Shown here piece after piece: positions 5,611 through 60,381 of a DNA stretch of 64,000 nt. The translations under genes and the position numbers were made by a program. This DNA comes from a virus (Duplodnaviria; Heunggongvirae; Uroviricota; Caudoviricetes), in IMG/VR virus record IMGVR_UViG_2875713109_000001; one strand, written 5' to 3'. The stretch's first letter is position 1, and each line of letters starts with the position of its first letter. The notes below the pieces were generated by a model that worked only from the letters and a program-made list of their open reading frames with translations, searched no databases and was not told where the DNA came from.

Positions 5611-6411
5611 ATGCAACAAACATTCAATGCGGATATGAATATATCAAACCTTCATCAAAATGTCGATCCTTCAACCACTCTGCCTGTTATTTGTGGTGTT
5701 GAAATTACGACCGACCGCGCTGGCCGTTACAACCTTAATGCTCTACACAGAGCGAGCGGACTCGGTGCCCATAAAGCGCCAGCTCAATGGCTAAGAACGC
5801 TGTCAGCCAAACAGCTCATTGAAGAGCTTGAAAAAGAAACTATGCAGAATTGCATAGTTTCGTTCGAAGGCCGTGGCGGCGGCACTTTTGCACATGAATT
5901 GCTCGCAGTGGAGTACGCAGGTTGGATTTCTCCCGCGTTTCGGCTGAAGGTAAACCAGACATTTATCGACTATCGAGCTGGAAGATTACAACCTGCTATT
6001 CCGCAGAGCCTCCCAGAAGCTCTCCGTTTGGCTGCTGACCTGGCAGAGCAAAAGCAACGGCTGGAGCAAAAAATGCTGATGGATGCACCTAAAGTCGAAT
6101 TCGCCGAACGCGTTGCTACCGCCAGCGGGGTTCTAATCGGCAACTATGCCAAAGTGCTCGGCCTGGGCCAAAACTATCTCTTCACCTGGTTGCGTGATAA
6201 CGGAATTCTGATCGCAACCGGTGAACGCAGGAACGTCCCCAAACAAGAATACATATCCCGTGGGTATTTCACCCTTAAAGAAACCGTGATCGATACAAGC
6301 AATGGAAGCAGGATTTCTTTCACGACTCGTATAACCGGCAAAGGTCAGCAGTGGCTGATGAAGCGATTGCTTGATGCTGGTGTGCTGGTACCTGTCGCGG
6401 CAACGCGCTAA
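5611..6411 (+). CDS. kilA: KilA (KilA-N domain plus KilA-C domain)
   Basis: 266 aa as in P1 KilA; N-terminal KilA-N-like region; C-terminal domain homologous to Ant C-terminus; GGAGAAAAA SD. Confidence 0.8.
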   Translation: MQQTFNADMNISNLHQNVDPSTTLPVICGVEITTDRAGRYNLNALHRASGLGAHKAPAQWLRTLSAKQLIEELEKETMQNCIVSFEGRGGGTFAHELLAVEYAGWISPAFRLKVNQTFIDYRAGRLQPAIPQSLPEALRLAADLAEQKQRLEQKMLMDAPKVEFAERVATASGVLIGNYAKVLGLGQNYLFTWLRDNGILIATGERRNVPKQEYISRGYFTLKETVIDTSNGSRISFTTRITGKGQQWLMKRLLDAGVLVPVAATR

Positions 6412-8789: not shown

Positions 8790-9086
8790 TTATGCTTTTC
8801 TGCGCAGAGGTGCACATTTATTCAGCAACAATAAATGTAATTCTTTGTTATTCCTAAGTATTTCGACACACCAATATCGTAACGTGTTCACTTCAAGTGT
8901 AGCCAGCACCTTATGTCGAAGTCCTCCCTCCCCTGCACATAACGATGACTGACATTCTGCTAAGGCACATAACCATGTATTGGCATCATAGAGAATCCAA
9001 TAATGCTCCTCTGAAATAGTTTTGCATCCAATTATTTCGAATCTTCGTTCTATCGTTTCAGGAGAGTATGAAAAATCAATTTCCAT
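8790..9086 (-). CDS. hypothetical Cys-rich small protein (98 aa)
   Basis: ORF only; weak RBS; sits between a minus-strand terminator and the cassette. Confidence 0.25.
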   Translation of the reverse strand: MEIDFSYSPETIERRFEIIGCKTISEEHYWILYDANTWLCALAECQSSLCAGEGGLRHKVLATLEVNTLRYWCVEILRNNKELHLLLLNKCAPLRRKA

Positions 9087-14534: not shown

Positions 14535-14725
14535 GGAAGAGATTTTATTGAAAGTCACTTGTTGACTTTCTCGCGAAAAGTAATTTTTTAAATTTTTTTG
14601 TGCGGGGAGGAGAACGAGTAATACAGGCGTTAAATTGTGGGAATTTCAGCCTGAAATCTTTTATGAATATTTATATATATCATGCACTTATACATGAAAT
14701 CGGCGCGGGACATTTTAGGCAGAGG
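14535..14725. other. putative parS centromere region
   Basis: Non-coding AT-rich region downstream of parB with palindrome gaaagtcacttgttgactttc (14550-14570), TCGCGA hexamer and atttcag/ctgaaat inverted heptamers resembling ParB box elements. Confidence 0.35.
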
Positions 14726-14756
14726 AGGAGGCTAAAACCACCTCCCACCAGCTGGA

Positions 14757-15722
14757 TTATTCCCCAGCAGACATTTTCCCAATGATTTTTTTTATTGCTT
14801 CGTCAATTTCAGTTTGCACTTCAGACGGGAGTCTGGAGAACTCGTAGGCGACTACCCGTTTTTTCGGATCAGACTTCTTTCTGGCGTATTGACGACGGTC
14901 AGAGAAGTCTCGCAGCTTCTCAACCACCACAGATTTAACCGGCGCGGGCTTCAGGCTTTTGCTTTCCGCTTTGAAGATAGCCAGTATCTTCGCTTTATCC
15001 TCTTTCGCGCCCTCAGTCTCTGCAATTCGTTCGCGCACCGTATCAACCAGCTCTTCAATAGGTACGCTTTTAGCGTTGGCATCCTCGGAGATCTGGAGCA
15101 GTAACTGGTAATCTGGCAGGGCGAGATCGCTGGCAACAGGGAAGACAGCAATCATCTCATCCGGCACCGCTGCCGCCTGGAACGCGCGCGTAACTTTAGC
15201 CTTTGAAATGTTCTCAGCGCGGGCGATCTCTTCTTTGGTCATGCTCTTACCATACATAACCTCGAAGCGTTTACCCAGTTCGCGCAGGGTGTGTTCGCGG
15301 GCTGTCTGGATATCAATGGCCAGCTGGCGTGCATCCGCCAGGCTGATCTCATCTTTCGTCACCAGAATCTCAAATTTCGTTTCATTAAAGATACACGCAG
15401 CGCGGCGACGTGATCCGTCCAATACCTCAATGCGCTCCCCAACCATACGACCGATAGCCGGGAAGAACTGTTGCAATTTAATGGTGCGGGAAATATCGCT
15501 TACCGACTCAGGGGTGAGCAGAGACTGATCGCGGCCGTTAACTGCCGGGTCAACGAACGTGCGCGACTCAATCTCACCACTCAGCACAACGGTAAGCAAA
15601 AATTTAGCCTGGCGGCCAGATTTTAGGGTAAAGGTTTTGGTGCCTTCACTGCCTTCAAGCATGCGAGCAAACTCGGAGCTATTCTTGCCCAGCACTCGTC
15701 CACGGGAAACTATTTTTTTCAT
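14757..15722 (-). CDS. parB: ParB partition protein
   Basis: 321 aa immediately downstream of and overlapping parA; position between parA and centromere-like region. Confidence 0.75.
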   Translation of the reverse strand: MKKIVSRGRVLGKNSSEFARMLEGSEGTKTFTLKSGRQAKFLLTVVLSGEIESRTFVDPAVNGRDQSLLTPESVSDISRTIKLQQFFPAIGRMVGERIEVLDGSRRRAACIFNETKFEILVTKDEISLADARQLAIDIQTAREHTLRELGKRFEVMYGKSMTKEEIARAENISKAKVTRAFQAAAVPDEMIAVFPVASDLALPDYQLLLQISEDANAKSVPIEELVDTVRERIAETEGAKEDKAKILAIFKAESKSLKPAPVKSVVVEKLRDFSDRRQYARKKSDPKKRVVAYEFSRLPSEVQTEIDEAIKKIIGKMSAGE

Positions 15723-16930
15723 GCCGCCTCACCCCTAACAAACTCAATTCGATCAAACACAGCCTTAGTGAAACGCTCGGCCTCGGTTCGTGCCTTCTTC
15801 AGCGCCTCTGCGCTGCCTGGATACGATTGCGGGTTGGCACTGATTACGGTGTCGAAAGACTCGCCGCATCGCTCAAATCCATCCAGACGAGGCAGAGAAG
15901 AGTCCAGAATGTTGCTGGCGTAAACCTCACGCGCAAGGCTGTGTGATGTCTCGTGATCGCGCTTGCCGGTCATCTTCGACATAAAACCAATGCTGGCGCT
16001 TAAACGCGGTTCTACGCCTTCCTCCTCCAGTTGCTCCAGCATTTCTGGCAGACGGGTGAGATATTTCAGTGTTGAGTGGAAGTCAACCTGGGCTGGTGGG
16101 GTAGGGGTAAGCAGCAAATCGCTGGCCGCCAGACCGTTGAGCAGGAACGGATCCAGGTGTGGACCGGTATCAATAAAGATAAAGTCATAATCATCCGCAA
16201 CACGATCAATGATATTGCGTCGAAGGATTTCGTACTGATTTTGTCCGGGAAGATGCTCTTCAACCAGCTCTTTCCATTGGCTGGCAACAAAGCCATCGTC
16301 GATAGAGGCTGGAATCACGTCTACGCCAGGAACGATGGTCGGACGAATCACCTCTTTGCGTAGCGTCTCCGCGTCCAGGTCGTTCAGCATCGCCTGCGCA
16401 GCGGTTTCCAGGATGGAACCAATACTGTGAGTATGGTCGAGGAACATTGTGCTGGATGCCTGAGGGTCAAGGTCAATTACCAGAATACGCAGATCGTGAC
16501 GCAGTAAATCCTGATGCACACGCAGAGCGTGCGCCAACGTGACTGTGGAAACCGTTTTGGATACGCCACCCTTCAGGTTTACGACAAAAATAACGTAAGG
16601 CGATTTGTGAATGTCGCGATATTTTGGGATCTTACGGTGGGCATAGATATCAATGACGTTCTGGATGGTCAGCGCGTACTGTTCAACGTTACCGACCTGT
16701 TTCTTGTTGAACTGGTACCCATTATCTTCCATCTCTTTGATGGCCTGCTCCACAATGCGGCGGCTCAGCTTCGGCAACTTTGCCACAGCGTTACGAGTGA
16801 ACGTCTGATAATACTCGGTCTGATTGAACTCTTTGCGCTGATCTTCAATATCCTGACTCATGGCCTTAAGTAATGCGCTTGCACGAAGAGCTATGGTGCC
16901 GACACCGCCGTAATCGCGTTTCATCATCAT
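15719..16930 (-). CDS. parA: ParA partition ATPase
   Basis: Deviant Walker A KGGVSKT in YVIFVVNLKGGVSKTVSTVTLAHA; recognisable but diverged similarity to recalled P1 ParA (e.g. LPRLDGFERCGESFDTVISANP conserved). Confidence 0.85.
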   Translation of the reverse strand: MMMKRDYGGVGTIALRASALLKAMSQDIEDQRKEFNQTEYYQTFTRNAVAKLPKLSRRIVEQAIKEMEDNGYQFNKKQVGNVEQYALTIQNVIDIYAHRKIPKYRDIHKSPYVIFVVNLKGGVSKTVSTVTLAHALRVHQDLLRHDLRILVIDLDPQASSTMFLDHTHSIGSILETAAQAMLNDLDAETLRKEVIRPTIVPGVDVIPASIDDGFVASQWKELVEEHLPGQNQYEILRRNIIDRVADDYDFIFIDTGPHLDPFLLNGLAASDLLLTPTPPAQVDFHSTLKYLTRLPEMLEQLEEEGVEPRLSASIGFMSKMTGKRDHETSHSLAREVYASNILDSSLPRLDGFERCGESFDTVISANPQSYPGSAEALKKARTEAERFTKAVFDRIEFVRGEAA

Positions 16931-17038
16931 CTCCTTATCATTTCGTATGAGTGAATTGTACGTTTGATTCTGCTACGTGCAACTTATTTTGATTTGTGCG
17001 TAAATTATTGCACGTAAAAAATGGCGATGAGGCTATTA

Positions 17039-17323
17039 GATGTGTGCTGGAGGGATGATGCAGGACCAGAATGTGCGATAGAGGGAAGTCGCATTGAATT
17101 ATGTGTTGTGGAGGGATCGCTGGTATCAAATATGTGCGCTGAAGGGAAAGATAGAAGATTAGATGTGCGCTGGAGGGAAACTTGGATGGTTAGATGTGTG
17201 CTGGAGGGAATGTCTGGGCAAACTGCGTGGCGCAACCCTCCAGCGCACACCAAAAACAGGAAAATGGGCAGGCATTCCCGGCAGCGCACATTTTTCAAAT
17301 GCAGCTGCCCTCCAGCACACACT
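17039..17323. repeat. incA iteron array (9 copies of 19-bp RepA-binding repeat, 6 forward and 3 inverted)
   Basis: Repeats of GATGTGTGCTGGAGGGAAA-like units directly downstream of repA. Confidence 0.75.
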
Positions 17324-18183
17324 TATTCGGGAAGTTTCAGCTTTGGATTGCGAGAATGGACGATTACAAAACTTTCCCGGCCTTTCTTCTCAATTGAACA
17401 GTCGAGATAGCCGATTGTTTTAAGCTGTTCTATCGCTTTCTTAATGATACGGTTTTGCTCGCCAACAGCTGACTGCAAAGCCAGGCGCTCACGGATTCGC
17501 GCGAACGATAGCGGCAACGGGTTCTGCGGAAGGCTTTCGATGAAAGTGTAAATGGCTTGTGCAGCTTCTTTCTTCGGAAGGGCACGCAAGGCGTGGTGTT
17601 GCAACAGAACGCGATAATCAAGCTGGAACAGCTCCCAGAGCTTCGAATCGGCCTCCAGCTCTATCAGATCAAGGTCAGCATCAAAACGCCCGACCTTCAG
17701 CAGACCAGTCTGATAGCCGCCTTTAGCATCTTTTCCGCGCTTAAAAGCGATACCCTTGTTACGCAAGCGTCCAAGTGATTCATGAATGGTTAAACGCAGT
17801 TTCGCATCCAGACGTTTTGAGGGGAAACCACAGGCTTTAGCGAACTCCTGAAACGATAACTGGATGGTGTTTGAAGACAAGCCGTATTTGCTGAACGCGT
17901 AGATGACACCGATCCACGTTTTGAAATCAGTATCCATATCGAGTCGAGGACCGGTGATTTTAATATCATCGTAACCCTCGGCTTTAGCTATCTCCAGCTG
18001 GGAAAACGCTTTGGTGGCATCAATCTCTTTACTTTCTCCTTTGCTCTTTGATGGCTTCGGCACGAATACCCCCAAGCGCATCAACGCTACAGGCTGCACA
18101 GTGTTGTTTGAATTAACTGTTAGTTCTTTTGCCTTACTTTCAATGTCTGCGTAAAGAATATCGGAGATAAATGATTGATTCAT
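17323..18183 (-). CDS. repA: RepA plasmid replication initiator
   Basis: 286 aa as in P1 RepA; flanked by 5 iterons upstream and 9 downstream, with DnaA boxes and GATC cluster upstream. Confidence 0.85.
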   Translation of the reverse strand: MNQSFISDILYADIESKAKELTVNSNNTVQPVALMRLGVFVPKPSKSKGESKEIDATKAFSQLEIAKAEGYDDIKITGPRLDMDTDFKTWIGVIYAFSKYGLSSNTIQLSFQEFAKACGFPSKRLDAKLRLTIHESLGRLRNKGIAFKRGKDAKGGYQTGLLKVGRFDADLDLIELEADSKLWELFQLDYRVLLQHHALRALPKKEAAQAIYTFIESLPQNPLPLSFARIRERLALQSAVGEQNRIIKKAIEQLKTIGYLDCSIEKKGRESFVIVHSRNPKLKLPE

Positions 18184-18240
18184 ATTACTTTTTCCGAATT
18201 ATGTGGATAGTTTTTATAAGTGGTGATAACTACCCAGGCT

Positions 18241-18343
18241 TTCCCGTCAGCACACATCCTATATCCCGCCAGCACACATTAGCAACCCGTCAGCACACAT
18301 TTTTATCCCTCCAGCACACATCGTTTTCCCTCCAGCACACATC
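18241..18343. repeat. incC iteron array (5 direct 19-bp repeats) of oriR
   Basis: Five tandem TTTCCCTCCAGCACACATC-like units upstream of repA start. Confidence 0.75.
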
Positions 18344-18374
18344 GCGATACACTTCTAAGCCAGACGTGGCGCGG

Positions 18375-18460
18375 CCTGCAACGATCAGGGATCTATATGG
18401 ATCTAATTGGGATCTGTATGGACCTAATTATTGGATCTACCCAGTGGATAATGTGGATAA
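18375..18460. other. oriR accessory region: five GATC sites and two DnaA boxes
   Basis: GATC at 18383, 18390, 18400, 18411, 18434; agtggataa and tgtggataa (TTATCCACA reverse) at 18442-18460. Confidence 0.6.
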
Positions 18461-18500
18461 GTGAAAAACCGGCCAACATAGCCGGTTGGAAGGAAGGGTA

Positions 18501-18893
18501 TTATTCTACGCTTTCGATAAGAAGACCATGTTCATAACATTTAAGCTCATCGCCTTCGTACAGGAATTGGTATCCAATACCACCATTTTCATGGACATTA
18601 GGGAATAACTCATAACTCACTGAAGAGCAAATCACACCAATGCAGCGATCAACGCCTTCTCGTCCTTCAGTGCTGAAAAAATCCTCTTCGGTAAGAACAT
18701 GAGTACATTGCTCATCAGCATAGGTCGGAAATACATGCTCGATGCAATCCGGGTGTTTTAAACCAAGCTGATCGGCAAGCTCGAAAGCATGACGGTATTG
18801 TTCAGATCCTGGCTTGCCAACAGTGATGTGCTCAATTTTGTAGATTGAAGTCGCTTTGTTGATAGTTTTCTTTACTGTTACTTTATCAGACAT
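18501..18893 (-). CDS. hypothetical protein (130 aa)
   Basis: ORF downstream of spanin-like pair on minus strand. Confidence 0.4.
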   Translation of the reverse strand: MSDKVTVKKTINKATSIYKIEHITVGKPGSEQYRHAFELADQLGLKHPDCIEHVFPTYADEQCTHVLTEEDFFSTEGREGVDRCIGVICSSVSYELFPNVHENGGIGYQFLYEGDELKCYEHGLLIESVE

Positions 18894-18904
18894 AAAAATC
18901 CCTT

Positions 18905-19237
18905 TTAGTTACCTCTGATAGCGCGGTTGTAATCATTAACGTTGCGATTCTTCCTGTTAATCCCCATCAGCATCGTTTCTGTATCGAGGATATACGCTGG
19001 CAGATCATCAAAATATTCACTGCTAAACTCTGGCATCCTGCACATAAATGCACTTTTGGGGGCAGGGTGGTTAACCTTTGTCGGCGTCGGCGTTAAATTC
19101 GGTGATCGACTGCCGGAGCAACCGCTGAGTGTCAGCAGGAATGCGCTGGCGAACATTACCCGCCGCAACCAGTTGTTTCTGAACTTCAGCTTTTCGTTCC
19201 ATTTGCCTGTCAGCATATTTGGCTTGTTCTGATTCAT
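18905..19237 (-). CDS. o-spanin-like lipoprotein (Rz1-like), overlapping the 3' end of the upstream gene
   Basis: Lipobox LTLSGC, Pro-rich mature region with late Cys; AGGAAG SD before ATG 19237; frame-shifted overlap with 19071-19493 typical of Rz/Rz1 pairs. Confidence 0.4.
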   Translation of the reverse strand: MNQNKPNMLTGKWNEKLKFRNNWLRRVMFASAFLLTLSGCSGSRSPNLTPTPTKVNHPAPKSAFMCRMPEFSSEYFDDLPAYILDTETMLMGINRKNRNVNDYNRAIRGN

Positions 19238-19493
19238 TTTTCACTTCCTGGCTGTGAAAATGTTGCTCTGCTTTGTTCATCGTCTCAATGGTCTGGTTAA
19301 GATCCATTATTGACTTATCACGTTCCTTAACAGCCTGATCAAGACTGCCAATTTTCTCCATGGCTTGCTTTAGCTGATGACGTTCCCATGCAAACCCAGC
19401 ACCAACAAGTGTGCAAATCAGAACAAGAACACCAGTAGCAGCAAGTTTCTCCTTCAAAGACAAAGCTGTTTTTAACGTAGAAAAGAATGACAT
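19071..19493 (-). CDS. i-spanin-like protein (Rz-like): N-terminal TM plus coiled coil
   Basis: AGGAGG SD 5 nt before ATG at 19493; TM LAATGVLVLICTLVGAGFAW then charged helical region. Confidence 0.4.
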   Translation of the reverse strand: MSFFSTLKTALSLKEKLAATGVLVLICTLVGAGFAWERHQLKQAMEKIGSLDQAVKERDKSIMDLNQTIETMNKAEQHFHSQEVKNESEQAKYADRQMERKAEVQKQLVAAGNVRQRIPADTQRLLRQSITEFNADADKG

Positions 19494-19532
19494 GTCTTCC
19501 TCCTGAAGAAAAATTATCAATGAAGTCCTTTG

Positions 19533-20321
19533 TTACTGTGCCGCTTTGTTTAATTCATCAAGAACAGAATCAGGAACCAAAGCGGCAACTGCGCTGGCTG
19601 TGCTGACCTTATTTGCTGATGCTTCCGCAAGCGCGGTACCGATAGCATGGTTATAAGCAGTTATGGCTACGTTGGCGCTTTCATTCGCTCGTTCATACTG
19701 CTGTTGTAACGCAGTTGTGGGCGCTGTTGTCTGGTTGAAAACAACCCCAAACTGTTCAGTTGCTACTTTCAGAGATTCAATTTGCTCTTCTGTTAGTGCT
19801 GGTGGGGGAGTGGCAGTGCCGCCGCCTGAACCAGAGCCTGACGAGCTTCCTGAGCCAGTGTTAAGGGTCTGGTTAATCTCCCCCATAGCAGCGACTAAAC
19901 TTGATGTATTAAGCGCGTTAACAGCGTCCTCAAGCGATTTAGTAATATTCACATCACCAATGGCAATAGAGATCGGCAGTTCTGAAACTTCTCGCTCATT
20001 AGCACGGCAGTAAACATCCCAACCAATATCGAGTTGAAGCAGCATTGACAGATCTGCATAACCAGCCAACAGGTCCGCGTGCTTAGTTGCCAGTTCTCCA
20101 ATGTTCGTTAAGCCAGTTGTGGTTGTTCTGATCGTTGAAACATAGCTGGTAATAGTGTCGGGATAGACAATTGTATCCAGAATTAATCCGGTCAATTCTT
20201 CTGCAAGCAGTTTTGCTGTGTTAGCACTGTTTCGTGCCGATGTTATGGCACCAGGTGTTTTCATCCCACCGGCGGCGGCCAATTTTTTATATGCGGATAA
20301 CTGGTAGTCTTTTTCCAGCAT
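19533..20321 (-). CDS. hypothetical protein (262 aa) with Gly/Ser linker
   Basis: AGGAG SD before ATG 20321; central TGSGSSSGSGSGGG linker; overlaps end of PAAR-like gene. Confidence 0.45.
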   Translation of the reverse strand: MLEKDYQLSAYKKLAAAGGMKTPGAITSARNSANTAKLLAEELTGLILDTIVYPDTITSYVSTIRTTTTGLTNIGELATKHADLLAGYADLSMLLQLDIGWDVYCRANEREVSELPISIAIGDVNITKSLEDAVNALNTSSLVAAMGEINQTLNTGSGSSSGSGSGGGTATPPPALTEEQIESLKVATEQFGVVFNQTTAPTTALQQQYERANESANVAITAYNHAIGTALAEASANKVSTASAVAALVPDSVLDELNKAAQ

Positions 20322-20329
20322 GATATCTC

Positions 20330-20614
20330 CTAACTTACCTGAACCAGGCCGTCTCCGGACGCTACGGTAGATCCGCATGAAACAGGGTCACCAACGCATA
20401 CGATCCCTTTACCATTGACGGTAAACCATGCCCTGGTTGATATAGCTTGCCCACCGTGCGTACTGTTTCCATCGGTATGCTGTGCATATTGCTTACCATC
20501 AACTAACACTTCGACTCCGTTGACTTTAAGTAGTGGTTCACTCTCTACAGGAGGCCTGGATGGGAATCCTCCGTGCCCCGAACAAATGCTGTCTTTTGTT
20601 GCAATACTTGCCAC
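20330..20614 (-). CDS. PAAR-like domain protein (94 aa)
   Basis: Repeated H-G-G and GDPVSCG motifs with short beta-strand spacing as in PAAR spike-tip proteins (from memory). Confidence 0.4.
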   Translation of the reverse strand: MASIATKDSICSGHGGFPSRPPVESEPLLKVNGVEVLVDGKQYAQHTDGNSTHGGQAISTRAWFTVNGKGIVCVGDPVSCGSTVASGDGLVQVS

Positions 20615-20694
20615 GTCATCACCAATTATTTGCTCTGGTTTTCGTTATTTTAACTTAGGTTACTTGTGGTCTACATGGTGTTAACTATTAAATA

Positions 20695-20711
20695 ATTGCT
20701 CTAATAAATAT
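20695..20711 (+). promoter_or_regulatory. C1 operator-like site upstream of hrdC-dmt operon
   Basis: attgctctaataaatat. Confidence 0.65.
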
Positions 20712-20782
20712 TGTTTTTTATGTCGTGTTTTCGGTACCATTCAGCCATCGCCCTTCAATGGGTATTTGTTTGGAGTCGTCAG

Positions 20783-21067
20783 ATGCAGATGGAGCTAATA
20801 AGCCGCAAAGAGTTCGATAGCCGTGTAACCAGCGGTGAACTCGACAACTTGCAGGCTATCAAGGTGAAAGAAGGCTTTTGCCTCATTGGGAATCAGAGCG
20901 GAACAAATCGCGTTTTTATGCTTCGCCGTACGGATTTGAAGCCATTTGTCTGGAAGAACGAAATTGGTCCCAGCTCATACGCTCAAACTAGGGGGTGCCT
21001 CAACCTGGCCTTTTTCTACAAAAACGAGCTTTCTGTGGTTGATATTCAAGGGTTACAACATGTTTAA
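20783..21067 (+). CDS. hypothetical small protein (94 aa)
   Basis: ATG 20783 with GGAG SD; first gene after operator; overlaps hrdC start. Confidence 0.4.
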
Positions 21068-21965
21068 GCACTGGAAAAACATTACTATTTTTAAACTTTC
21101 TCGTGAGGCGGATCTGACCGACTTGGAAGATAAAAAGAAAATGATCCTTTTCACGCCATGCGGTAGTCAGGATATGGCCAAGTTCGGTTTTGTATCTCCA
21201 TTTGGTGATAATTCCGAAGTTATCGCTATGCATGGAAATGGTTTTATCCTTGTTGAAGCAAAGCGCGAAACAAAAATTCTTCCCCCGCCGGTTATCCAGC
21301 GAGCTATTCAAGAAAAAATTGAAAAACTCGAGCAAGAACAAGCGCGTAAACTGAAGAAAACAGAGAAGGACTCCCTGAAAGACGAAGTTCTGCATTCTCT
21401 TCTGCCACGGGCTTTTTCAAAGTTCTCTGTTATCCAGGCGATCTACGACGGTTCAACTAAACGTATCTATATCAATGCCAGCGCGCGGCAGGCAGAGGAT
21501 ATGCTCGCGCTTATGCGTAAATCTCTGGGTTCTCTTCCTGTTGTTCCCCTAAGTGTTGAAAATCCCATTGAATTAACGCTGACCGACTGGGTACGTGATG
21601 GTAGTGCTCCACAGGGATTTCAAATGGGGGATGCGGCAGAACTTAAGGCAGTGCTTGAGGATGGCGGTATTGCCCGAGTGAAAAAGCAGGACTTGGGAAG
21701 TGATGAAATATCCACACACCTGGAAGCTGGCAAGCTCGTCACTAAGTTGGCACTCGACTGGCAGAACCGCATTAAATTTACACTGGACCATAACTTCAGC
21801 CTTACCAGCGTCAAATTTGCGGATGAATTGCTTGAGCAGAACGCTGATATTGATAGTGAAGATGTTGCGCAGCGACTGGACGCAGATTTCTTCCTGTTGA
21901 CCAGTGAAATTTCGTGCCTGGTTGATGCTCTGGTAAATGCCCTTGGTGGAGAGGCTAAGCAGTGA
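21059..21965 (+). CDS. hrdC: RdgC-like recombination-associated protein
   Basis: Strong similarity to recalled E. coli RdgC along full length ([13 protein letters not shown]..., KILPPPVI..., [35 protein letters not shown]). Confidence 0.8.
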
Positions 21966-24226
21966 AAGAGCTGTGCTATGGATCTGTTTGCAGTGGAATT
22001 GAAGCCGCGAGTATTGCCTGGGAACCGTTGGGTATGCGTCCGGCGTGGTTTGCTGAAATCGAGCCTTTTCCATCTGCCGTTCTTGCGCACCGCTGGCCCC
22101 ATGTCGCCAACCTTGGCGACATGACAAAACTTGCCAAAAAAGTCCTGGCTGGGGAAATCGAATCCCCTGATGTGCTCGTCGGGGGAACACCTTGTCAGGC
22201 ATTCAGTATCGCTGGATTACGTGGTGGGCTTGATGATGAGCGTGGCGCGCTAACTTTAAAGTATGTGGAGCTTGCAAATGCAATTGACGACAAACGGGCT
22301 GAGTCATTTCTCAAACCAGCCGTTATCGTCTGGGAAAATGTCCCAGGAGTCTTGTCATCGGCAGATAACGCCTTCGGATGTTTCCTTGCCGGATTGGCTG
22401 GAGAAGATGCGCCATTTGAACCAGGTGATCGACCTGAATCAGGAAAAAGTAACGCGTTCTGGCGGTGGGATGGCAAAACCGGTTGCCATGCTCCAAAGTG
22501 GCCGCAGTGTGGTTGTATTTATGGACCGCAGCGAAAGGTGGCCTGGAGAATCCTTGATGCCCAATACTTCGGAGTGGCACAACGACGCCGACGCGTGTTT
22601 GTTGTCGCAAGTGCTCGAACAGACCTCGATCCCGCAACGGTACTTTTTGAGTTCGAAGGCGTGCGCCGGGATATTGCGCCGAGCCGAAAAAAGAAGGAAA
22701 TCGCTTCCGCCATTATTGCAAATGGCGCTGCAATCAGTGGCGAAAGCCTAAATCCATGCCTACATGCTGACATGCCACCCGGTATGAAATCGACGAAAGC
22801 CGTAAACGCTTTCAGGATGGCAGCATTTGGGGAATATATTGACGATGAAACCGCATCGACAGTAAAGGCAAGAGATTTTAAAGATGCCACTGACCTTGCC
22901 GTTTTTAGCAGCACAGGAGCAGCTTTTTGGTCAGAAGGGCATGGTACATTGCGGGCACGTGAGCAAGAAAGCCATGAGCATCTTGTTACATTGGCTTTTC
23001 CTGAGCGTATGAGCGGTACACAACATGCTGCAACTAAGAATACTTCACCATCTCTAATGGCTAAAAATCCAACAGCTGTTTGCTATGAAGTAAGAAACGC
23101 AGAAGTAGCTGTCCGCCGTCTTACCCCTGTCGAATGTGAAAGGCTGCAAGGTTTTCCTGATGGGCATACGTTGATCCCGACGGAAAAGCGTAAAAAAGTT
23201 AGTTCAGATGAACTGGCATATCTTCGCAATCACTATCCAGATTTAAGCGAAGAAGAGGCCGTGATGCTTGCAGCTGACGGACCGCGTTACAAAGCGATCG
23301 GCAATAGTATGGCAATACCAGTAATGCGCTGGATTGGCGATCGGATTACTAAGGCCGTATGTCGGCAGAAAGAAGGAAGTGAAACAAAAGAGCGAAAAGT
23401 TAAACCAGCGGCAGAATTCGAACGGTCCATATTCAAATGGGCTGGTGGAAAATTTGGTGTTCTGGAACAAATCTTTCGCTATTTGCCAGAAGGGAAGCGC
23501 CTGATTGAACCTTTCGTTGGTGGCGGAGCTGTCTTCATGAATGCCGGATACCAGGAAAATCTGCTAAATGATGTGAATGCTGACCTGATTAACTTTTACA
23601 AGACTCTGCAACGCGAGGCGCATTCACTTATCACTCTGGCACATCGTTTTTTCCTGGACTACAACACCCAGGAGGGATACTTGGCAGTACGGAATGCGTT
23701 TAACAAACAAGTCTATGATGATTTACATCGCGCAGCGGCGTTTTTGTTCCTGAACCGACATTGTTTTAACGGATTGACGCGTTACAACCAGGCCGGTGAG
23801 TTCAATGTCGGTTATGGGAAGTATAAAACTCCGTATTTCCCATTACAGGAGATGGAAGCCTTCCTCGGTGCGGAAGGGCGGTCTGAGTTTGTATGCGGTG
23901 ATTTTGCAGCGGTGATTGAAGCTGCCGGAGAAGGAGATGTCATCTTTTGCGATCCGCCGTATGAACCGCTCCCCAATACAGAGGGGTTCACGAACTATTC
24001 CGGTCATGACTTTAAGTTTGAAGAGCAAAAACGCCTGGTGTCTCTGTTGACGGATGCTCATCGTCGAGGTGCAAAGGTTCTCATTACTAACAGTGGCGCG
24101 CCAAACATCAGAGAGCTTTATCATGACAGTGGCTTCAGAGTGGAACCTCTTTTTGCCAGACGTTCTGTGTCTTGTAAGGGGGACACTCGAGGTGTAGCTC
24201 ATGACGTTTTGGGTATATTGCTCTAA
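21962..24226 (+). CDS. dmt: bifunctional DNA methyltransferase Dmt (N-terminal C5-cytosine MTase-like, C-terminal Dam-like N6-adenine MTase)
   Basis: 754 aa; [12 protein letters not shown] and ENVPG (C5 motifs IV and VI); C-terminal [13 protein letters not shown]..., DPPY (IFCDPPYEP). Confidence 0.85.
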
Positions 24227-29628: not shown

Positions 29629-32775
<3,147 letters not shown>

Positions 32776-42041: not shown

Positions 42042-42251
42042 ATGGCTATCGCTGCAAGTTACACCATGCATCTCTATTGTGATTGCCTCCAGTGTACAGA
42101 TGGCAAATATAAGTCGCCAGACTTCGGTGAGTATATAGGTACGTCATGGGCTGGCTGTGCAAAAGAGGCGCGCAAGGATGGCTGGCGAATAAGCAAAGAC
42201 AAAACGCGTGCTTTTGCGCCCGGGCATAAAGTTTTGAGGATTAACAAATGA
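42042..42251 (+). CDS. small Cys-rich protein (69 aa)
   Basis: AAAGGAGAG SD; CDCLQC...C pattern. Confidence 0.45.
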   Translation: MAIAASYTMHLYCDCLQCTDGKYKSPDFGEYIGTSWAGCAKEARKDGWRISKDKTRAFAPGHKVLRINK

Positions 42252-42964
42252 CCACTATAACCAAAGAGCGACTGCTGACAATCAAGCAGTGGCGCGAAAC
42301 ATACGGACCTGGTAGCAACGTTGTACTGCCAGCAGAAGAAGCGGAAGAACTGGCACGAATTGCGCTGGCATCGCTGGAAGCAGATCCAGTTGCTTATATT
42401 TTCAAACATCCGGCCGGGAAATTATTCTGGGCTTTAACGGATGAAAGCAATAAAGAGCAAGCGGACGTTATTCCTGTTTATGCTGCCGCGCCTGCGTCGG
42501 TTGTGCCGGATAATGCATCAGAGCCTCTTGCTTATGCTTACAAAGAGCTTACGCCTGAGATTATGCGCAACCATTTAGCTGTATTCGAGCGATATGGAAT
42601 AGCCCCAAACGATAGCTCTACCACAATTCAGGCACTGCGAATCGCGCTGGATGGCATAGAGCGGAGCGACGCCATGCTTCATGGTGCCGAACCTGTAAGC
42701 CAAACTTACAAGTTGAACCAGCTATCGGGCAACTCTCCGGCAACTCCGGATGGTTGGATAAGCTGTAGTGAGCGAATGCCGAATACCAAAACAGCCGTTC
42801 TTGTTGCCGTGGAGTTTGACAGGAAAGGTGACTGGCGAATGAAATGGGCTACTTACATCCCCGGGCATCCTGACGCTAATGATGGGTGGATAATTCCTGG
42901 TGCGTCGTGGAAACCGTCACACTGGATGCCGCTACCAGAACCGCCGCAGGAGGTGAATCAATGA
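42248..42964 (+). CDS. DUF551-like domain protein
   Basis: C-terminal GWISCSERMP...W...HWMPLPEPP resembles DUF551. Confidence 0.45.
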   Translation: MTTITKERLLTIKQWRETYGPGSNVVLPAEEAEELARIALASLEADPVAYIFKHPAGKLFWALTDESNKEQADVIPVYAAAPASVVPDNASEPLAYAYKELTPEIMRNHLAVFERYGIAPNDSSTTIQALRIALDGIERSDAMLHGAEPVSQTYKLNQLSGNSPATPDGWISCSERMPNTKTAVLVAVEFDRKGDWRMKWATYIPGHPDANDGWIIPGASWKPSHWMPLPEPPQEVNQ

Positions 42965-43028
42965 GCTGGCCTGAAGCATTCACCACGGTAGGAATTGTGA
43001 TGGCGGCAGCACTGGGTTTGTATTCAAT

Positions 43029-43280
43029 TTGTCGCTGGTGGTAACGATGGGAAAAATAACTTTTGTAGTCGAATTTGAGGATGGCAAAGAGCCACCTGTT
43101 AGCGCCAATCTTGATGTTGCTGGTGGCAGGCTGGTTTCGGTTCTATTTGGTGATTACCGCGACGACTTCTTTCAGCCTGAAGAAGTTGATGTAGTGCGAG
43201 AAGCATTAAACGAGCTAAGTGTTGATAACGATGATGCTCATGCGGAAATCATCAAAAAAATGGAACTGCTAACTCACTAA
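43029..43280 (+). CDS. hypothetical acidic small protein (83 aa)
   Basis: ORF only. Confidence 0.35.
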   Translation: MSLVVTMGKITFVVEFEDGKEPPVSANLDVAGGRLVSVLFGDYRDDFFQPEEVDVVREALNELSVDNDDAHAEIIKKMELLTH

Positions 43281-43458
43281 ATTATCAATTATGGTGCTAT
43301 CACCTACGACACCGAGAGAAAATTTATAATGTCAAAAGTAAATGTTTTGATTTTTTCAGCAATTGTTGGCTTTGGTTTTACTGCCGGAGTGCAGATTTAT
43401 ATTGCGTGGGAAAAAATCATCAACTACGCATGGAGTTGTTTTATTAAGTGAGGTAAGT

Positions 43459-43752
43459 ATGTGGAGAGGTAATAGTCATGGCAAAAGCCAGATGATACTT
43501 ACCGAATATCAGTTTGACCATAAAACCAATAAATCACGTTCAGTATATTTGCTTCGGCACAATAGCCGCGTAAGGAATACCGTGCTGGAGCAAAATCTGA
43601 CTGTTGAAATGGATAATTACGGGGGCTTCAAGCCAACAATTTCGCTTGATGATTTTCCTCGTGGTTTAAGCGAAAGAGAAGCAATGCTGAAATTAGCAGA
43701 ATGGCTACAAAGATTAAGCATTGCTATTGAAGATAACTGGTCTGAACCTTAA
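43459..43752 (+). CDS. hypothetical protein (97 aa), AT-rich gene
   Basis: GTGAGG SD before ATG 43459; low GC. Confidence 0.4.
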   Translation: MWRGNSHGKSQMILTEYQFDHKTNKSRSVYLLRHNSRVRNTVLEQNLTVEMDNYGGFKPTISLDDFPRGLSEREAMLKLAEWLQRLSIAIEDNWSEP

Positions 43753-43758
43753 ATTTAT

Positions 43759-44133
43759 ATGATGACACTAAAACATTTTCTTGACCGCCCATTATGGGCG
43801 GCAGCCGCAGGCTATGACTTTAATTATATGGATTGCATGTCTTATACCGCCAATGCATACGACCATTCCTTCAGTCTGCTGTTTAATTCTTTAAGAATAT
43901 TGCCGCAAACAGAAGTTGGAGAGCTTCATTTATGGCTATTGGGCTTTATCGCGGCTGGAGTTGGTATTGCTGTATGGCCTTTTATTTTCTGGCTGGTGGC
44001 TGTTGTAGTGTGGTTTAAGTGCAAGACGTACCGGAAAAAGTATTTCTTAGGTGATGGAATGACTGATATTGCCAAAATGAACATTGAAAAATGGACTAAG
44101 GAATGTGAAAAGAAATGGCGCAAAAAGAAATGA
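43759..44133 (+). CDS. membrane protein (124 aa) with basic C-terminus
   Basis: TM LWLLGFIAAGVGIAVWPFIFWLVAVVVW then KKWRKKK. Confidence 0.45.
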   Translation: MMTLKHFLDRPLWAAAAGYDFNYMDCMSYTANAYDHSFSLLFNSLRILPQTEVGELHLWLLGFIAAGVGIAVWPFIFWLVAVVVWFKCKTYRKKYFLGDGMTDIAKMNIEKWTKECEKKWRKKK

Positions 44134-44774
44134 CTACTCTAACGACAGCATACTTACAGCAATTGGTATTTTTTGCAGGCGAGGCTACTTGTCATCCTGA
44201 CGCAAACTATTTATTGGAATTTGAGAGGTTAGCGTCACCCGGTATCGTTCTGGAACTGGCCCAACAGGTGCTGGCCTTAAGACAAAAAGAGCAACATGAA
44301 AGTAATACGTGTAGATTGAACTTTGAGCAGTGGCTGGAACAGCAACGCGGAAAAATCGATGTGGACTGTGGTTGTGTGTCTACTGAAACATTCATGCACT
44401 GGCTGCGGGTAGCTTACGAGGCTGGCAACTATCCGGATATTCCGGATAGTTCGGTGCCAGGGCCAGGAAAGGGCGTCACCGGTGAACGTATCCGCATTAA
44501 GCCGCATGTTTATCGCGAACTGGTTAACCGTCTCCACGATACAGCGATCAAGTGTGCTGGCACCCAGCAATTACGAGAAAGAATTAGCCGTGTTTTGGGC
44601 GACGTTATTAAGCCAGACCATCATAAACAAGCCGAGAAAAGTGGCCTGGAAAGGTGTCACCTTGAGGCGGCATTAAACATTAACCCGGGGCATACGCTTG
44701 GCATTATTGATGCACTATTGGTTCATAAGATGGCCAGGGCTTTATTGCCGCTGGTAGGGGGCAATGACAACTAG
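44115..44774 (+). CDS. hypothetical protein (219 aa)
   Basis: ORF overlapping upstream gene end. Confidence 0.4.
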   Translation: MAQKEMTTLTTAYLQQLVFFAGEATCHPDANYLLEFERLASPGIVLELAQQVLALRQKEQHESNTCRLNFEQWLEQQRGKIDVDCGCVSTETFMHWLRVAYEAGNYPDIPDSSVPGPGKGVTGERIRIKPHVYRELVNRLHDTAIKCAGTQQLRERISRVLGDVIKPDHHKQAEKSGLERCHLEAALNINPGHTLGIIDALLVHKMARALLPLVGGNDN

Positions 44775-44858
44775 GAAAAAATCGCATTACTGGTGGCAAA
44801 GCCATAACTACTGATACAATATTTCTAGGTTAAAGATCTGGCATTAGGTAGAGATAGC

Positions 44859-45323
44859 ATGTTTCTTCATATCAATCCCGATTGGGCATCAGCTATTGCG
44901 GCATTTGGGTCAGCAATAGCTGCTTTTATTAGTTTGCGCACAAGTAAAAATCTTGGATTATTCGATAAGGAAAAATTTTATAGTGAAGCATTGATAAACT
45001 TTGCTGATAGGGCAAATAAAATAGCAACAGGAAAAGCTGGATCAGACTGGGATGTTAATGACGCAAGTAATATAATTCTTTCACTAAATGCCGCAAAAGA
45101 AACTATTGAAAGTGCGCCAAAACCTATTCGAGAGAAACTAAAACAATATTACAAACATAATCTTTGCCATGAGATCATAACTGAATTAGAGGCTCACTCT
45201 CCCCCAGATTCAGTAATTGTAAGAGAACCATCAGAGTATGAAGGCAAGATCATGGGATTGTGGGATGAGATTAAAATATTTCTGGGTTATACAGTGGTAT
45301 CAGAAGCAGACCTTGAAGATTAA
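44859..45323 (+). CDS. membrane-anchored protein (154 aa), AT-rich gene
   Basis: N-terminal hydrophobic segment WASAIAAFGSAIAAFISL; low GC relative to neighbours. Confidence 0.4.
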   Translation: MFLHINPDWASAIAAFGSAIAAFISLRTSKNLGLFDKEKFYSEALINFADRANKIATGKAGSDWDVNDASNIILSLNAAKETIESAPKPIREKLKQYYKHNLCHEIITELEAHSPPDSVIVREPSEYEGKIMGLWDEIKIFLGYTVVSEADLED

Positions 45324-45430
45324 AGTTTGGTGTGACCACATCATTTCATCAATGATGCCCGAAGTGGGGAGTTTGACGATTGTCCGGTGATTTAAGCTGC
45401 AAAGTGCTGGTGCTTTATGCTTGTGAAGTT

Positions 45431-47865: not shown

Positions 47866-47950
47866 TTGATTGCTTGCCCGTTCCGGGCCTTTTGACATGT
47901 GACTTTCGTTACCCTCGCGTCAAAAAGAGTTTTTACGAAAGGAAGCATAA

Positions 47951-56560: not shown

Positions 56561-56749
56561 TAAATATATTATTTTTAATCTTAAATGATTGACAACTGAC
56601 AAGTGACTTGAGTCAGAATCATCACACGCCCGGTACGGATGGATCCCTTTTCAAATATTCCATGGACGGCACAGTCTGAGTACCGGGCGCTACCTTCTGT
56701 TGTATTGCTAAGCCGCCGCTGGTGGCTTTTCTTTTTTGTAGGGGGCGCT

Positions 56750-57466: not shown

Positions 57467-60379
57467 TTATGGTAATGCGCTCTTGATTAACTGATAAATA
57501 TCATCATTAGCAAACTGCGTTTTGAATTCAACTTTAACAGACTGACTTATTTGATTGAAAAGCGCCTGGGCATGTTCAATTTTCTTTTTTTCTTCAAGCC
57601 GTAAACTATCCTTACTATCTACGTTTTTTGTTTCAATGATAAAGTTAAGATAATCACCTTCTGCTGTTTTTACAACATAAGCAAAATCGGGTGAGTAAGT
57701 GTATCCACCAGCTACCGGGATCTTAATAGAATTCTTCGGTATCTTTGAAAAAACAACAACAGACTGGATCTCTCTATCTGTTATATTACGCCTTTCAAGC
57801 TCTGAATCATAAAAAACCTCTTCAAAAAGATAAGTATCTAATGGTGCTTTTGAATTATCCTGTAATACACCAAGATCACTTGATAATACCTCGTCTAGAG
57901 GCTTACCATCAGCATTTGTGAACTTTGTGGGATGAATTGAACCCGAAATCAAATTATATCCGAGGCTGAATTTGTTAAACGAATTGTTCAACAAATACTT
58001 ACTAAAACCAGATTTAATTTTTCTGATTGTTTGAATATTCAGGTATTCAGTGATATTAATAGTGTCTTTTATATCACAAAAAACTTTATGTAAAGTATCG
58101 TGTTTAACAAAAATAGTCTGTGATAAGTTATCGAGAAACTCTCGATAACTCATTGTGTTTAGCTTAGCAAAGTCATCGTCATCACTAACAATGCTTTTCG
58201 ACATTGCCATATCATTGTGGATGTAAATTTTATCAATGCGAGTATGAACGCCTGATTTGGTAAATCGTTCTGTTTCTTCGAGCATGAATGACTTGAAAAT
58301 GGATAAAAACTCATTTTCACTGTTTATTTTGTACTCAATCACCGCTTTTTGATTGATTAATTCCCATAGTTCTTTCAGCTCACTGAACTTACCAACACGC
58401 ATTTTAGTGCGTCTTTTTCCATCAGTAGCTTTTTTGATTTTACCTGGTTTCACTCCTATAGGGAATGCTGCTGGATATTTGGATTTTAAGCGGCTGTAGG
58501 CATCTGAATCTTTGAAATTATCATTTTCATCAATGATTTCATCATTGAAAAGTTCATTCATTAGTGCTCTGGATGAAAGCTCAGGATACTGAGCCCTGAT
58601 TTGTTCCTTAAGCTCTTGAGTAAACTTACTTGGAACCCTTTCTTTGAAAGAACTCTCATTGACCTCTTTAACAAGTGAGTCAACAAAATCCTTTTCTGTA
58701 AAATCGACATAATATTTAAGGGTAAAATTGCGGTCTTTCACTCGACACATGTATTCATTCACAGGAAGACGCAAACCGCGCCCTACCTCTTGAAGCTTGG
58801 ATGTGGTACTACCGCTCGAACGGAGCTTACAGATCTGAAAGACATTAGGATTATCCCATCCCTCACGCAACGTCCATTTGGAGAAAATGAAACGACGTGG
58901 ATTATCTAAAGACAGCAAAAGCTCTTTGTCATGAAGGATTTCGTTGATTTCCTTCTCGATTTTATCATCCTTATCACTGTTATCTTTTGAAAAATAACCG
59001 CCATGAACGGAAGATATATCTTTAACTGTTTTTTCAAGATAGTTACTATAAAACTCATCTTTTTCTATTTTTAACAGTTCATTAGCTTCTGCCAAAACAT
59101 ATTCTTCGAACTTAGCTTTCAAACTTCCGGCAATATTATTACCGTCACGATAACCTTCAATATCATCAATAAAGAAAAGAGTAAGAGGCTTTATGCGTGG
59201 CCTTTGTGTCAGAAACTCTTTTTCTAACTTAAAGTGTTCTTTGATAGCTTTCCTCATCATGCTGTCAGCAAGTGTCTGATCGTAAGAATAGGGGTTTATT
59301 GAGCAACCAATTTTTAGCTCAATACCATTACTCAACACTACTGTATTCTTGCCTAAGGCATCAAGAGTTAAATCGTGAATAGCACTATGTGTCTTAGATA
59401 GAGATTCACCTTTTGTTAACTTAAATAAAGTTTTCTTGTTATTTTCATTTAGCTCAAATGTAACTTCTTCCCCATCAGATTTAATGAACTTTAGGTTGGC
59501 GTCACCATCACCAACAATATCCTCAATGTACGCATCAATACCTTTAACAAGGTCTTCATTAAATGCATCCACAGCTGTAAGTCGATAAACTAAATTCTTA
59601 TAGCCTTCACTAAAGGTCGCACCGTAGCGGATAATATATTGAGCATTAAACTTCTCTATATTTTCCCATGTCTTTTTACCAGTAGGAAATTTATGTGGTT
59701 CATCAATGATAATGAATGGTTTTACCGCACCAAGAGCTGAAAAGGGAGAATCAAAATGATTGTCAAGCAAGCCAACATCATAAGTGGAATTTAAATTCTT
59801 AGAGTGAATCATTCCCGTGTTAATAACAAGAACGTGTATATATTTCTTATTGAAATTACTAGCTTCAACAAAATCATGTATAGCTTGAGGCATATACGAT
59901 TTTGTGCTTTTACCGGCATTTTTCTGACTTTCAACAACGTAAGTCTTTATTTCACGCTCATAATCATCTCTAAAGTGTTCTTTTAACGCATCGCTTTTCA
60001 AAAAGTTCACTGTTCCAGCTTTGATCGATAGAGTAGGAACAATAATGATAAACTTATTAATGCCAAATGATTTGTTCAGATCAAAAATTGTTTTAGTGTA
60101 GGTATACGTTTTACCTGTACCTGTCTCCATAGAAACATCGATTACGTTGCTTCCAGCATCGTAATTATTTTTTACATGTTCAATACCATTGAGTTCCTGA
60201 ACTTTTTTTATATTTTTATAGTATTGCTGTTCAGTAAGCCGTAATTCTGGATTAACTAACAGGCGAATAGAAACATTATCCTCCTGATGAGATGTCGCGG
60301 AAACAAAAACGTTCATCACCGCATCGACACCTGCTTTCTGATGCGGTAAGTTCTTTTCGAATGTGAACCCTTTTGACAT
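57467..60379 (-). CDS. res: type III restriction enzyme Res subunit
   Basis: 970 aa as in EcoP1I Res; helicase motifs METGTGKTYTY (Walker A) and IIIDEPHKF (DEAH-like); AT-rich. Confidence 0.9.
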   Translation of the reverse strand: MSKGFTFEKNLPHQKAGVDAVMNVFVSATSHQEDNVSIRLLVNPELRLTEQQYYKNIKKVQELNGIEHVKNNYDAGSNVIDVSMETGTGKTYTYTKTIFDLNKSFGINKFIIIVPTLSIKAGTVNFLKSDALKEHFRDDYEREIKTYVVESQKNAGKSTKSYMPQAIHDFVEASNFNKKYIHVLVINTGMIHSKNLNSTYDVGLLDNHFDSPFSALGAVKPFIIIDEPHKFPTGKKTWENIEKFNAQYIIRYGATFSEGYKNLVYRLTAVDAFNEDLVKGIDAYIEDIVGDGDANLKFIKSDGEEVTFELNENNKKTLFKLTKGESLSKTHSAIHDLTLDALGKNTVVLSNGIELKIGCSINPYSYDQTLADSMMRKAIKEHFKLEKEFLTQRPRIKPLTLFFIDDIEGYRDGNNIAGSLKAKFEEYVLAEANELLKIEKDEFYSNYLEKTVKDISSVHGGYFSKDNSDKDDKIEKEINEILHDKELLLSLDNPRRFIFSKWTLREGWDNPNVFQICKLRSSGSTTSKLQEVGRGLRLPVNEYMCRVKDRNFTLKYYVDFTEKDFVDSLVKEVNESSFKERVPSKFTQELKEQIRAQYPELSSRALMNELFNDEIIDENDNFKDSDAYSRLKSKYPAAFPIGVKPGKIKKATDGKRRTKMRVGKFSELKELWELINQKAVIEYKINSENEFLSIFKSFMLEETERFTKSGVHTRIDKIYIHNDMAMSKSIVSDDDDFAKLNTMSYREFLDNLSQTIFVKHDTLHKVFCDIKDTINITEYLNIQTIRKIKSGFSKYLLNNSFNKFSLGYNLISGSIHPTKFTNADGKPLDEVLSSDLGVLQDNSKAPLDTYLFEEVFYDSELERRNITDREIQSVVVFSKIPKNSIKIPVAGGYTYSPDFAYVVKTAEGDYLNFIIETKNVDSKDSLRLEEKKKIEHAQALFNQISQSVKVEFKTQFANDDIYQLIKSALP

Positions 60380-60381
60380 GA

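Follow-up and report, generated by a model that had tools for sequence, protein, structure and literature searches.

Spike-tip genes and a predicted overlapped spanin pair probably share one operon near oriR of a P1-like phage-plasmid

What does a gene for a PAAR-like protein do beside a pair of spanin-like genes, close to a plasmid replication origin and far from any holin or endolysin gene? The question is raised by a 64,000-nucleotide stretch of viral DNA (IMG/VR record IMGVR_UViG_2875713109_000001, Caudoviricetes; hereafter the window), in which positions 18905–20614 hold a block of minus-strand genes. The initial annotation, made from the sequence alone, read this block as a PAAR-like gene, a gene for a 262-residue linker-containing protein and an overlapping Rz/Rz1-like spanin pair next to oriR, and left its function between a lysis accessory, an envelope-targeting toxin and components of the virion spike. 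We conclude that the block is very probably the upfC-upfB-ppfA-mlp(-upfA) operon, in which a virion spike tip and a predicted overlapped spanin, two unrelated late functions, are joined in one transcription unit. 'Virion spike components' is apt for upfC and upfB and 'lysis accessory' for ppfA and mlp, and the toxin found no support. The genes, the structure of UpfC, the UpfB tripod and the spanin assignment have all been published previously. New here are a conserved cassette, a lineage in which it abuts the capsid genes, a short upfB start and a motif resembling a late promoter upstream of upfC.

Results

The block carries four known genes of P1

Over the 2.4 kb around the block, P1, P7 and related punaviruses show 95.3–98.6% nucleotide identity to the window at full length. 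A 5-kb query around the block (17000–22000) matched 768 enterobacterial plasmid records, and the window is collinear with the P1 isolate OP279344 from pmgB through c1. Taken together, this identity, the plasmid matches and the collinearity establish that the window is a P1-like phage-plasmid. The gene order at the block in the P1 reference record (NC_005856) is upfC, upfB, ppfA, mlp, then upfA, then oriR/repA, and the divergent neighbour of the block in that record is the C1-controlled uhr-hrdC-dmt operon. The reading frames of upfC, upfB, ppfA and mlp were all found on the minus strand where the initial annotation had placed them, and the identities of the genes are directly demonstrated:

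upfC, 20330–20614, minus strand: 94-residue PAAR protein homologous to T4 gp5.4, at the tip of the central tail spike
upfB, 19533–20321, minus strand: all-helical protein of 262 residues whose Gly/Ser/Thr/Pro linker (about residues 155–175) is variable, published as a 'tripod' on UpfC
ppfA, 19071–19493, minus strand: predicted i-spanin of 140 residues, in which an N-terminal transmembrane anchor precedes a long, helical periplasmic domain
mlp, 18905–19237, minus strand: predicted o-spanin precursor of 110 residues, with a 39-residue signal peptide, an LSG↓C lipobox and a 71-residue Pro-rich mature part

The minus-strand operon with Shine-Dalgarno sequences that had been proposed holds in all four frames: GGTGA precedes the GTG start of upfC, the upfB ATG (20321) has 5 nt before it a perfect AGGAG that overlaps the upfC stop codon, AGGAGG precedes ppfA, and AGGA lies 8 nt upstream of mlp.

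UpfC is the PAAR tip of the tail spike

The PAAR-like gene proved to be what it had been taken for. UpfC of the window is identical at 93 of 94 positions to P1 'UpfC' (PDB 9vyi_A, E 1.7e-60; baseplate entry 9VZK), the single difference being a conservative substitution, Ser85 in place of Ala. Other PDB chains that match are those of T4 gp5.4 (5iv5 and 4ku0, E ~1e-7) and of a Vibrio PAAR protein (4jiv, E 3.7e-4). PHROG 281 matches at E 2e-30, and the Pfam PAAR_motif at E 8.5e-6 with 26.4 bits, just under the gathering cut-off of 27 bits. The conical PAAR fold has been solved experimentally for the 99%-identical protein (9VYI; PMC12810830), and we count the structure of UpfC among the points directly shown. 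In that 2026 cryo-electron microscopy (cryo-EM) study of P1, UpfC is a single-copy tip on the gp5 trimer and is compared with T4 gp5/gp5.4. An earlier study (PMC9024508, 2022) had predicted a PAAR protein by HHpred and reported that a upfC deletion mutant plaques normally. UpfC and T4 gp5.4 (4KU0, 5IV5) are of equal length, each a bare PAAR cone, a single copy of which tops the beta-helix trimer of gp5, whereas T4 gp5 has a lysozyme domain that P1 gp5 lacks (PMC12810830, PMC9024508).

A gp5-type spike partner is encoded in the same genome, where collinearity with OP279344 places it 9.7 kb from the block and thus not adjacent to upfC:

gene 5, 29629–30261, minus strand: 210-residue open reading frame (ORF) for the spike trimer bearing UpfC, in the 26-25-7-24-6-5 operon

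A PAAR gene outside a baseplate cluster had been regarded as unexpected. This surprise largely dissolves, because gene 5 is itself so distant and because in a relative described below the cassette lies directly upstream of the capsid and sheath genes; the morphogenesis genes of P1 are scattered.

PAAR proteins of type VI secretion systems often carry or recruit effectors, and the category given to PHROG 281 is 'moron, auxiliary metabolic gene and host takeover'. With upfC lying away from the baseplate operons, these facts could be taken to mean that UpfC and UpfB are a toxin-delivery or moron module, like a type VI PAAR-effector pair, and not virion parts. We consider this extremely improbable: UpfC consists of its 94-residue PAAR domain alone, Pfam detects neither an enzymatic nor a toxin domain in UpfB, the spike gene 5 is present in the same genome, and UpfC has been modelled on gp5 in the P1 baseplate map (PMC12810830), so that cryo-EM effectively refutes such a module.

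UpfC also has a full-length match (E 4.8e-10) to chain BA of PDB 9f4b, a protein of 97 residues deposited as 'Phospholipase'. This chain resembles a PAAR spike-tip protein, and its deposited name may mislead.

UpfB is an all-helical protein, probably of 262 residues

The longest ORF for upfB runs for 281 codons from 20378; this form, which starts within upfC, is the one annotated in NC_005856. Several observations favour the 262-residue start. Besides the Shine-Dalgarno sequence at 20321, PHROG 1559 aligns over its full profile to residues 20–281 of the long form (E 9.4e-138), full-length homologues are 255–262 residues long, OP279344 annotates 789 nt, and in two diverged relatives (the contigs L006 and L008 described below) the upfB start falls after the stop codon of the PAAR gene. 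The 281-residue annotation is therefore probably too long, by 19 codons. The 262-residue form and its flexible linker had both been recognized correctly at the outset.

The closest homologues from Escherichia coli P1-type elements are 96–98% identical and have the same 262-residue form, and the window protein shares with the UpfB tripod of P1 (PMC12810830) this form, the place directly after upfC and an all-helical fold. Our AlphaFold2 model consists of helices only (predicted local distance difference test score (pLDDT) 82.6, predicted template modelling score (pTM) 0.76), with Gly/Ser residues 158–169 as the sole long disordered segment. Alignments reveal a family layout of an N-terminal helical domain containing IGWDVYCRAN, a variable linker and a C-terminal helical part; the linker differs in length and composition among homologues, and the motif LLQLxIGWDVYCRAN is kept in the 15 closer ones. 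Within 1.84 billion proteins the family comprises 88 representatives at 50% identity, about two thirds of which are full-length (236–265 residues) and the remainder shorter fragments.

Searches for relatives outside this family returned little. Pfam identified no family in the window UpfB or in 24 further members, a sequence search of PDB chains gave low-complexity matches to the linker and no relative, and two distant family members searched against viral contigs led to no related loci. Foldseek with the UpfB model found no significant fold match in the PDB; the best, non-significant neighbours were the fusogenic Chlamydia protein IncA and pore-forming four-helix bundles.

The published accounts place UpfB at the tail tip. 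PMC12810830 describes a 'tripod' anchored on the PAAR tip, at medium resolution and with the density fitted by an AlphaFold3 trimer, and PMC13611949 (2026) reports three helical copies that have a loop at the distal end, and regards the role of the protein as unclear. The latter proposes T4 gp5.1 as an analogue, whose sequence is unrelated to UpfB as far as tested. By CRISPR interference (CRISPRi) and knock-outs, upfB is non-essential.

PpfA and Mlp have the features of an overlapped spanin pair

The start of mlp lies inside ppfA in the +1 frame; the two genes share 167 nt, and mlp extends for 166 nt past the ppfA stop. This arrangement is 'overlapped' (P2-type) and not fully embedded in the manner of lambda. 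The lipoprotein frame overlapping the 3' end of a transmembrane/coiled-coil gene, as first proposed, is present.

PpfA has one strongly hydrophobic stretch, residues 17–35 (Kyte-Doolittle 2.22), and no other hydrophobic segment; Lys8, Lys14 and Lys16 precede it, fitting a single transmembrane domain of N-in/C-out topology. The AlphaFold2 model of PpfA, which is of moderate confidence (pLDDT 70, pTM 0.30), has a helix at residues 13–110, a break at 111–119 (Gly112, Pro119) and a second helix at 120–137. In Mlp the lipobox cysteine is Cys40, followed at +2 by Ser and not Asp, and the mature part has a second Cys at position 66 and 7 Pro. PpfA matches PHROG 89 (E 7.2e-25), and Mlp matches PHROG 30284 (E 1e-75) and PHROG 456 (E 3.3e-5), all of them 'Rz-like spanin' families. 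L006, L008, L009 and P2 LysC all retain the lipobox, and neither its cysteine nor the second one varies between them and the window; the Shine-Dalgarno sequence and ATG that give Mlp its long signal peptide are kept between the window and L008.

An alignment of Mlp with P2 LysC extends over 68 residues at 35% identity (E 4e-7), taking in the signal peptide, the lipobox and the C-x-M-P cysteine, and PpfA has in common with P2 LysB a C-terminal P-x-D-x-x-R-L motif. The P2 genes also share the overlapped +1-frame architecture and encode proteins of similar size (i-spanin ~140 residues, o-spanin ~100 residues), and PpfA and Mlp would appear to be distantly related to LysB and LysC. The P2 pair, however, ends the lysis cassette Y-K-lysA-lysB-lysC, whereas the pair of the window follows virion genes and is unlinked from holin and endolysin; the signal peptide of LysC has ~20 residues and that of Mlp 39. 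With lambda Rz/Rz1 the pair shares a type II inner-membrane protein whose periplasmic domain is helical, and a small Pro-rich outer-membrane lipoprotein in the +1 frame. Rz1 is wholly embedded in Rz, whereas mlp runs beyond ppfA, and the periplasmic cysteines of Rz form intermolecular disulfides, for which PpfA has no counterpart outside its membrane segment.

The P1 pair was reportedly listed as a spanin by Summer in 2007. Table S1 of Kongari et al. 2018 gives P1 an overlapped ('ovl') two-component spanin with gp064 as i-spanin and gp063 as o-spanin; it records a single periplasmic Cys for gp063 and none for gp064, and P1 forms a family of its own. The spanin-like pair that had been recognized in the window is therefore one already in that table, and it possesses every sequence-level hallmark of the two-component type. 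These sequence-level features are directly demonstrated, and from them we infer the activity of a two-component spanin.

Two papers, PMC9025707 and bioRxiv 10.64898/2025.12.28.696737 (Table S1), name ppfA the o-spanin and mlp the i-spanin. Judged by the sequences the labels are swapped in both, because the transmembrane anchor is in PpfA and the lipobox in Mlp, in agreement with Kongari et al. 2018.

The distance of the block from any holin or endolysin, stated in the initial annotation, was confirmed: P1 lyz, lydA, lydB, lydC, lydD and lydE have no blastn or tblastn match in the 64-kb window. In P1 these lysis genes occupy two other operons, and ppfA and mlp lie outside any lysis cassette.

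A four-gene cassette is conserved in diverged lineages

We compared the context of the block in contigs that encode diverged UpfB homologues (L005–L010). In a Salmonella lineage (L005–L007, UpfB 44% identical), genes for a PAAR protein and UpfB are accompanied by those for a 149-residue transmembrane protein and an overlapping 112-residue lipoprotein (MLSGC). The four-gene cassette is also present in L008 (UpfB 48% identical) and in the metagenomic contig L009 (29% identical), where a Rep3-family replication gene follows it. In the window, L006, L008 and L009 alike, upfB lies directly downstream of the PAAR gene. Because the same order of PAAR, UpfB, transmembrane-protein and overlapping-lipoprotein genes occurs in three diverged lineages, it is not due to chance, and its recurrence in L006, L008 and L009 shows that P1-like elements keep the four genes together as a stable cassette even where UpfB identity falls to 29%.

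In the Salmonella lineage (L005–L007) the major capsid and sheath genes lie directly downstream of the cassette, with no replication or partition module between them. The most distant locus, L010 (UpfB 24% identical), has its PAAR gene 1.5 kb upstream of the UpfB gene, and capsid and sheath genes come directly after the latter; no ORF of at least 55 residues with spanin features was found between the PAAR and UpfB genes there.

An order kept to such divergence in three lineages might indicate that the four genes are one functional unit, in which the spike tip and the spanin-like pair cooperate in crossing or fusing the envelope. This we judge very unlikely, given that spanins depend, within the cell that makes them, on a signal peptidase II signal and on anchoring in the inner membrane, that the virion mass-spectrometry paper PMC9024508 does not mention PpfA or Mlp, and that L010 has the PAAR and UpfB genes without a spanin-like ORF of that size between them. 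Unrelated late genes are commonly co-transcribed in phages, and two unrelated late functions in one operon is the reading we retain.

What lies downstream of the spanin genes differs among these elements: P1-type oriR/repA/par in the window (14560–18500), nothing in L005/L006 (7232–7670) and a Rep3-family initiator in L009 (2208–2969). The junction looks like a hotspot for the exchange of plasmid-maintenance modules, and the adjacency to oriR looks like a reflection of this junction.

The last gene of the operon lies outside both the block as first delimited and the conserved cassette:

upfA, 18501–18893, minus strand: 130-residue Cys-rich protein, last gene of the operon

It starts 11 nt past the mlp stop, behind AAGGGA as the Shine-Dalgarno sequence. 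PHROG 1453 (unknown function) is the sole match of UpfA, which belongs to no Pfam family, and upfA is absent after the spanin genes in L006, L008 and L009. Homologues are confined to close P1 relatives and are near-identical; since many of those in the databases are frameshifted or truncated, the gene would seem to be dispensable or decaying.

Sequence signals and published RNA data suggest late transcription

A scan of the window with the late-promoter pattern AAGTNACTT-N4-TANNNT, allowing at most one mismatch and using the annotated promoters LPlyz and LPdar as templates, gave 7 matches against 0.99 expected and recovered the annotated LP23. One match lies 33 nt upstream of the upfC start:

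candidate P1 late-promoter-like motif, 20647–20665, minus strand: -22 box AAGTAACCT, 4 nt (AAGT), -10 box TAAAAT

The capsid-abutting contig L006 has a perfect motif (5662–5680, plus strand) at the same 33-nt distance upstream of its PAAR gene. Downstream, the operon is followed by a second candidate signal:

terminator-like GC hairpin, 18467–18487, minus strand: between the upfA stop and the DnaA box of oriR

The hairpin has a 9-bp stem with 5 G-C pairs and then the T run TTTTCACTTAT; it comes from a consensus scan and is a pattern match only, with 4 terminator-like sites in the region against 2.3 expected. The initial annotation was right that the block is near oriR; the two do not directly adjoin, as upfA (18893–18501) intervenes and the hairpin (18487–18467) would end the operon.

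In the supplementary RNA sequencing (RNA-seq) of a P1vir preprint, neither upfB nor ppfA gives a signal at 10 min, and both have a log2 fold change of 3–4 at 20 min; the late genes prt and lyz follow the same pattern, and uhr is already at 6.9 at 10 min. From these data and the motifs, we infer late, Lpa-dependent transcription from upfC through upfA, with probable termination at the hairpin before oriR. The P1 record also holds two predicted sigma-70 promoters inside upfB, P1ppfA and P2ppfA; a sigma-70 scan of the window found no site at their predicted positions.

Four further motifs with one mismatch resemble late promoters, at 32705–32723 (minus), 47897–47915 (plus), 56601–56619 (plus) and 9063–9081 (minus). 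By collinearity, the one at 47897 is just upstream of pacA; that at 32705 lies within the 5' end of gene 7.

Other features of the window

The parB and parA genes (14757–16930) match OP279344, in a collinear block whose mean identity is 96.7%, and have no megablast match to the par genes of NC_005856; it follows that two par alleles circulate among 'P1' genomes. Between pmgT and phd, the interval 40469–45326 measures ~4.9 kb as against ~0.7 kb in OP279344, holds several ORFs of 110–240 residues and is possibly the counterpart of the pmgU-humD region in reference P1. The interval 57467–62343 is of low GC content (35%), with two large minus-strand ORFs of 970 and 653 residues that we take, from their size and position, to be the EcoP1 type III res and mod genes.

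Discussion

Taken together, the data suggest how the products of one operon would act at the two ends of infection. A single UpfC PAAR cone caps the beta-helix spike of gp5, and UpfB, a long bundle of helices from which a flexible Gly/Ser loop extends, would bind UpfC to give the 'tripod' at the tail tip. These two proteins would be the first parts to meet the host envelope; neither is needed to form plaques. In the producing cell, the N-terminal helix of PpfA would hold the protein in the inner membrane, its long helix spanning the periplasm, and Mlp would be lipidated at Cys40 and sorted to the outer membrane. Once the Lyz endolysin has removed the peptidoglycan, the PpfA-Mlp complex would be expected to fuse both membranes and so finish lysis.

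A number of points weigh against this reading. For the spike, the virion mass spectrometry of PMC9024508 did not detect UpfC and the text of that paper does not mention UpfB, whose stoichiometry is given as three trimers in PMC12810830 and three copies in PMC13611949, with no resolution at the atomic level. For the spanins, Bednarek et al. 2022 (PMC9025707), who name ppfA and mlp as the P1 spanin genes and place them in an unlinked operon, describe them as never verified by experiment. PpfA, unlike lambda Rz, has no Cys outside its membrane segment, and pairwise BLASTP of PpfA with P2 LysB gave nothing significant. Kongari et al. 2018 give LipoP cleavage of Mlp at residue 39 and flag the resulting 39-residue signal peptide as 'too long'. 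In the CRISPRi knock-down, efficiency of plating was 1.3 for ppfA and 0.24 for mlp and both were scored non-essential, a score on plates that is also expected for spanin mutants. For the transcription unit, the 20-min RNA-seq values are not statistically significant, the late-promoter motif upstream of upfC has one mismatch in the window, and in the P1 reference strains the -22 box is degraded to AAATAATCT and AAATAACCT, with 2–3 mismatches. No promoter is annotated ahead of upfC in the P1 reference record, and the -22 box mismatches in the two laboratory sequences may explain this omission. A late promoter that depends on Lpa and had escaped annotation may drive the operon; it would be intact in many P1-like plasmids and decayed in laboratory P1.

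The points concerning PpfA and Mlp bear on whether the two are lysis spanins or an inner-membrane/outer-membrane pair with another role in the envelope, for example in superinfection exclusion by the prophage or in helping DNA entry. Such a role would accord with the atypically long signal peptide of Mlp and the missing periplasmic Cys of PpfA, and with a pair that is unlinked from every P1 lysis gene, none of which is in the window; the predicted P1ppfA and P2ppfA promoters could moreover permit expression of ppfA and mlp independently of the late genes. We nevertheless regard it as unlikely. PpfA and Mlp have all the topological and architectural attributes of spanins, Mlp has a homologue in P2 LysC, each of the two proteins finds matches among the PHROG spanin families, and the survey of Kongari et al. 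lists this pair, and no other candidate, for P1. The empty sigma-70 scan at the predicted promoter positions and the late-gene-like RNA-seq pattern likewise argue against expression of that kind, and we retain the assignment as a predicted two-component spanin.

With the genes and their assignments already in the literature, the discovery value of this work is small, and its practical use lies in the annotation of P1-type records, several of which in the public databases omit mlp and upfC or name the spanins 'hypothetical'. For the biology of these elements, what the comparison adds is a spike-tip and spanin cassette that persists across P1-like lineages. It is conceivable, though we think it quite unlikely, that UpfB, as a helical bundle, acts on membranes and opens or fuses those of the host during entry, and that its linkage with the spanins makes an 'envelope-crossing' cassette for entry and exit. 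If that were true, the stable linkage of the spike tip with the spanins would reflect more than common late timing.

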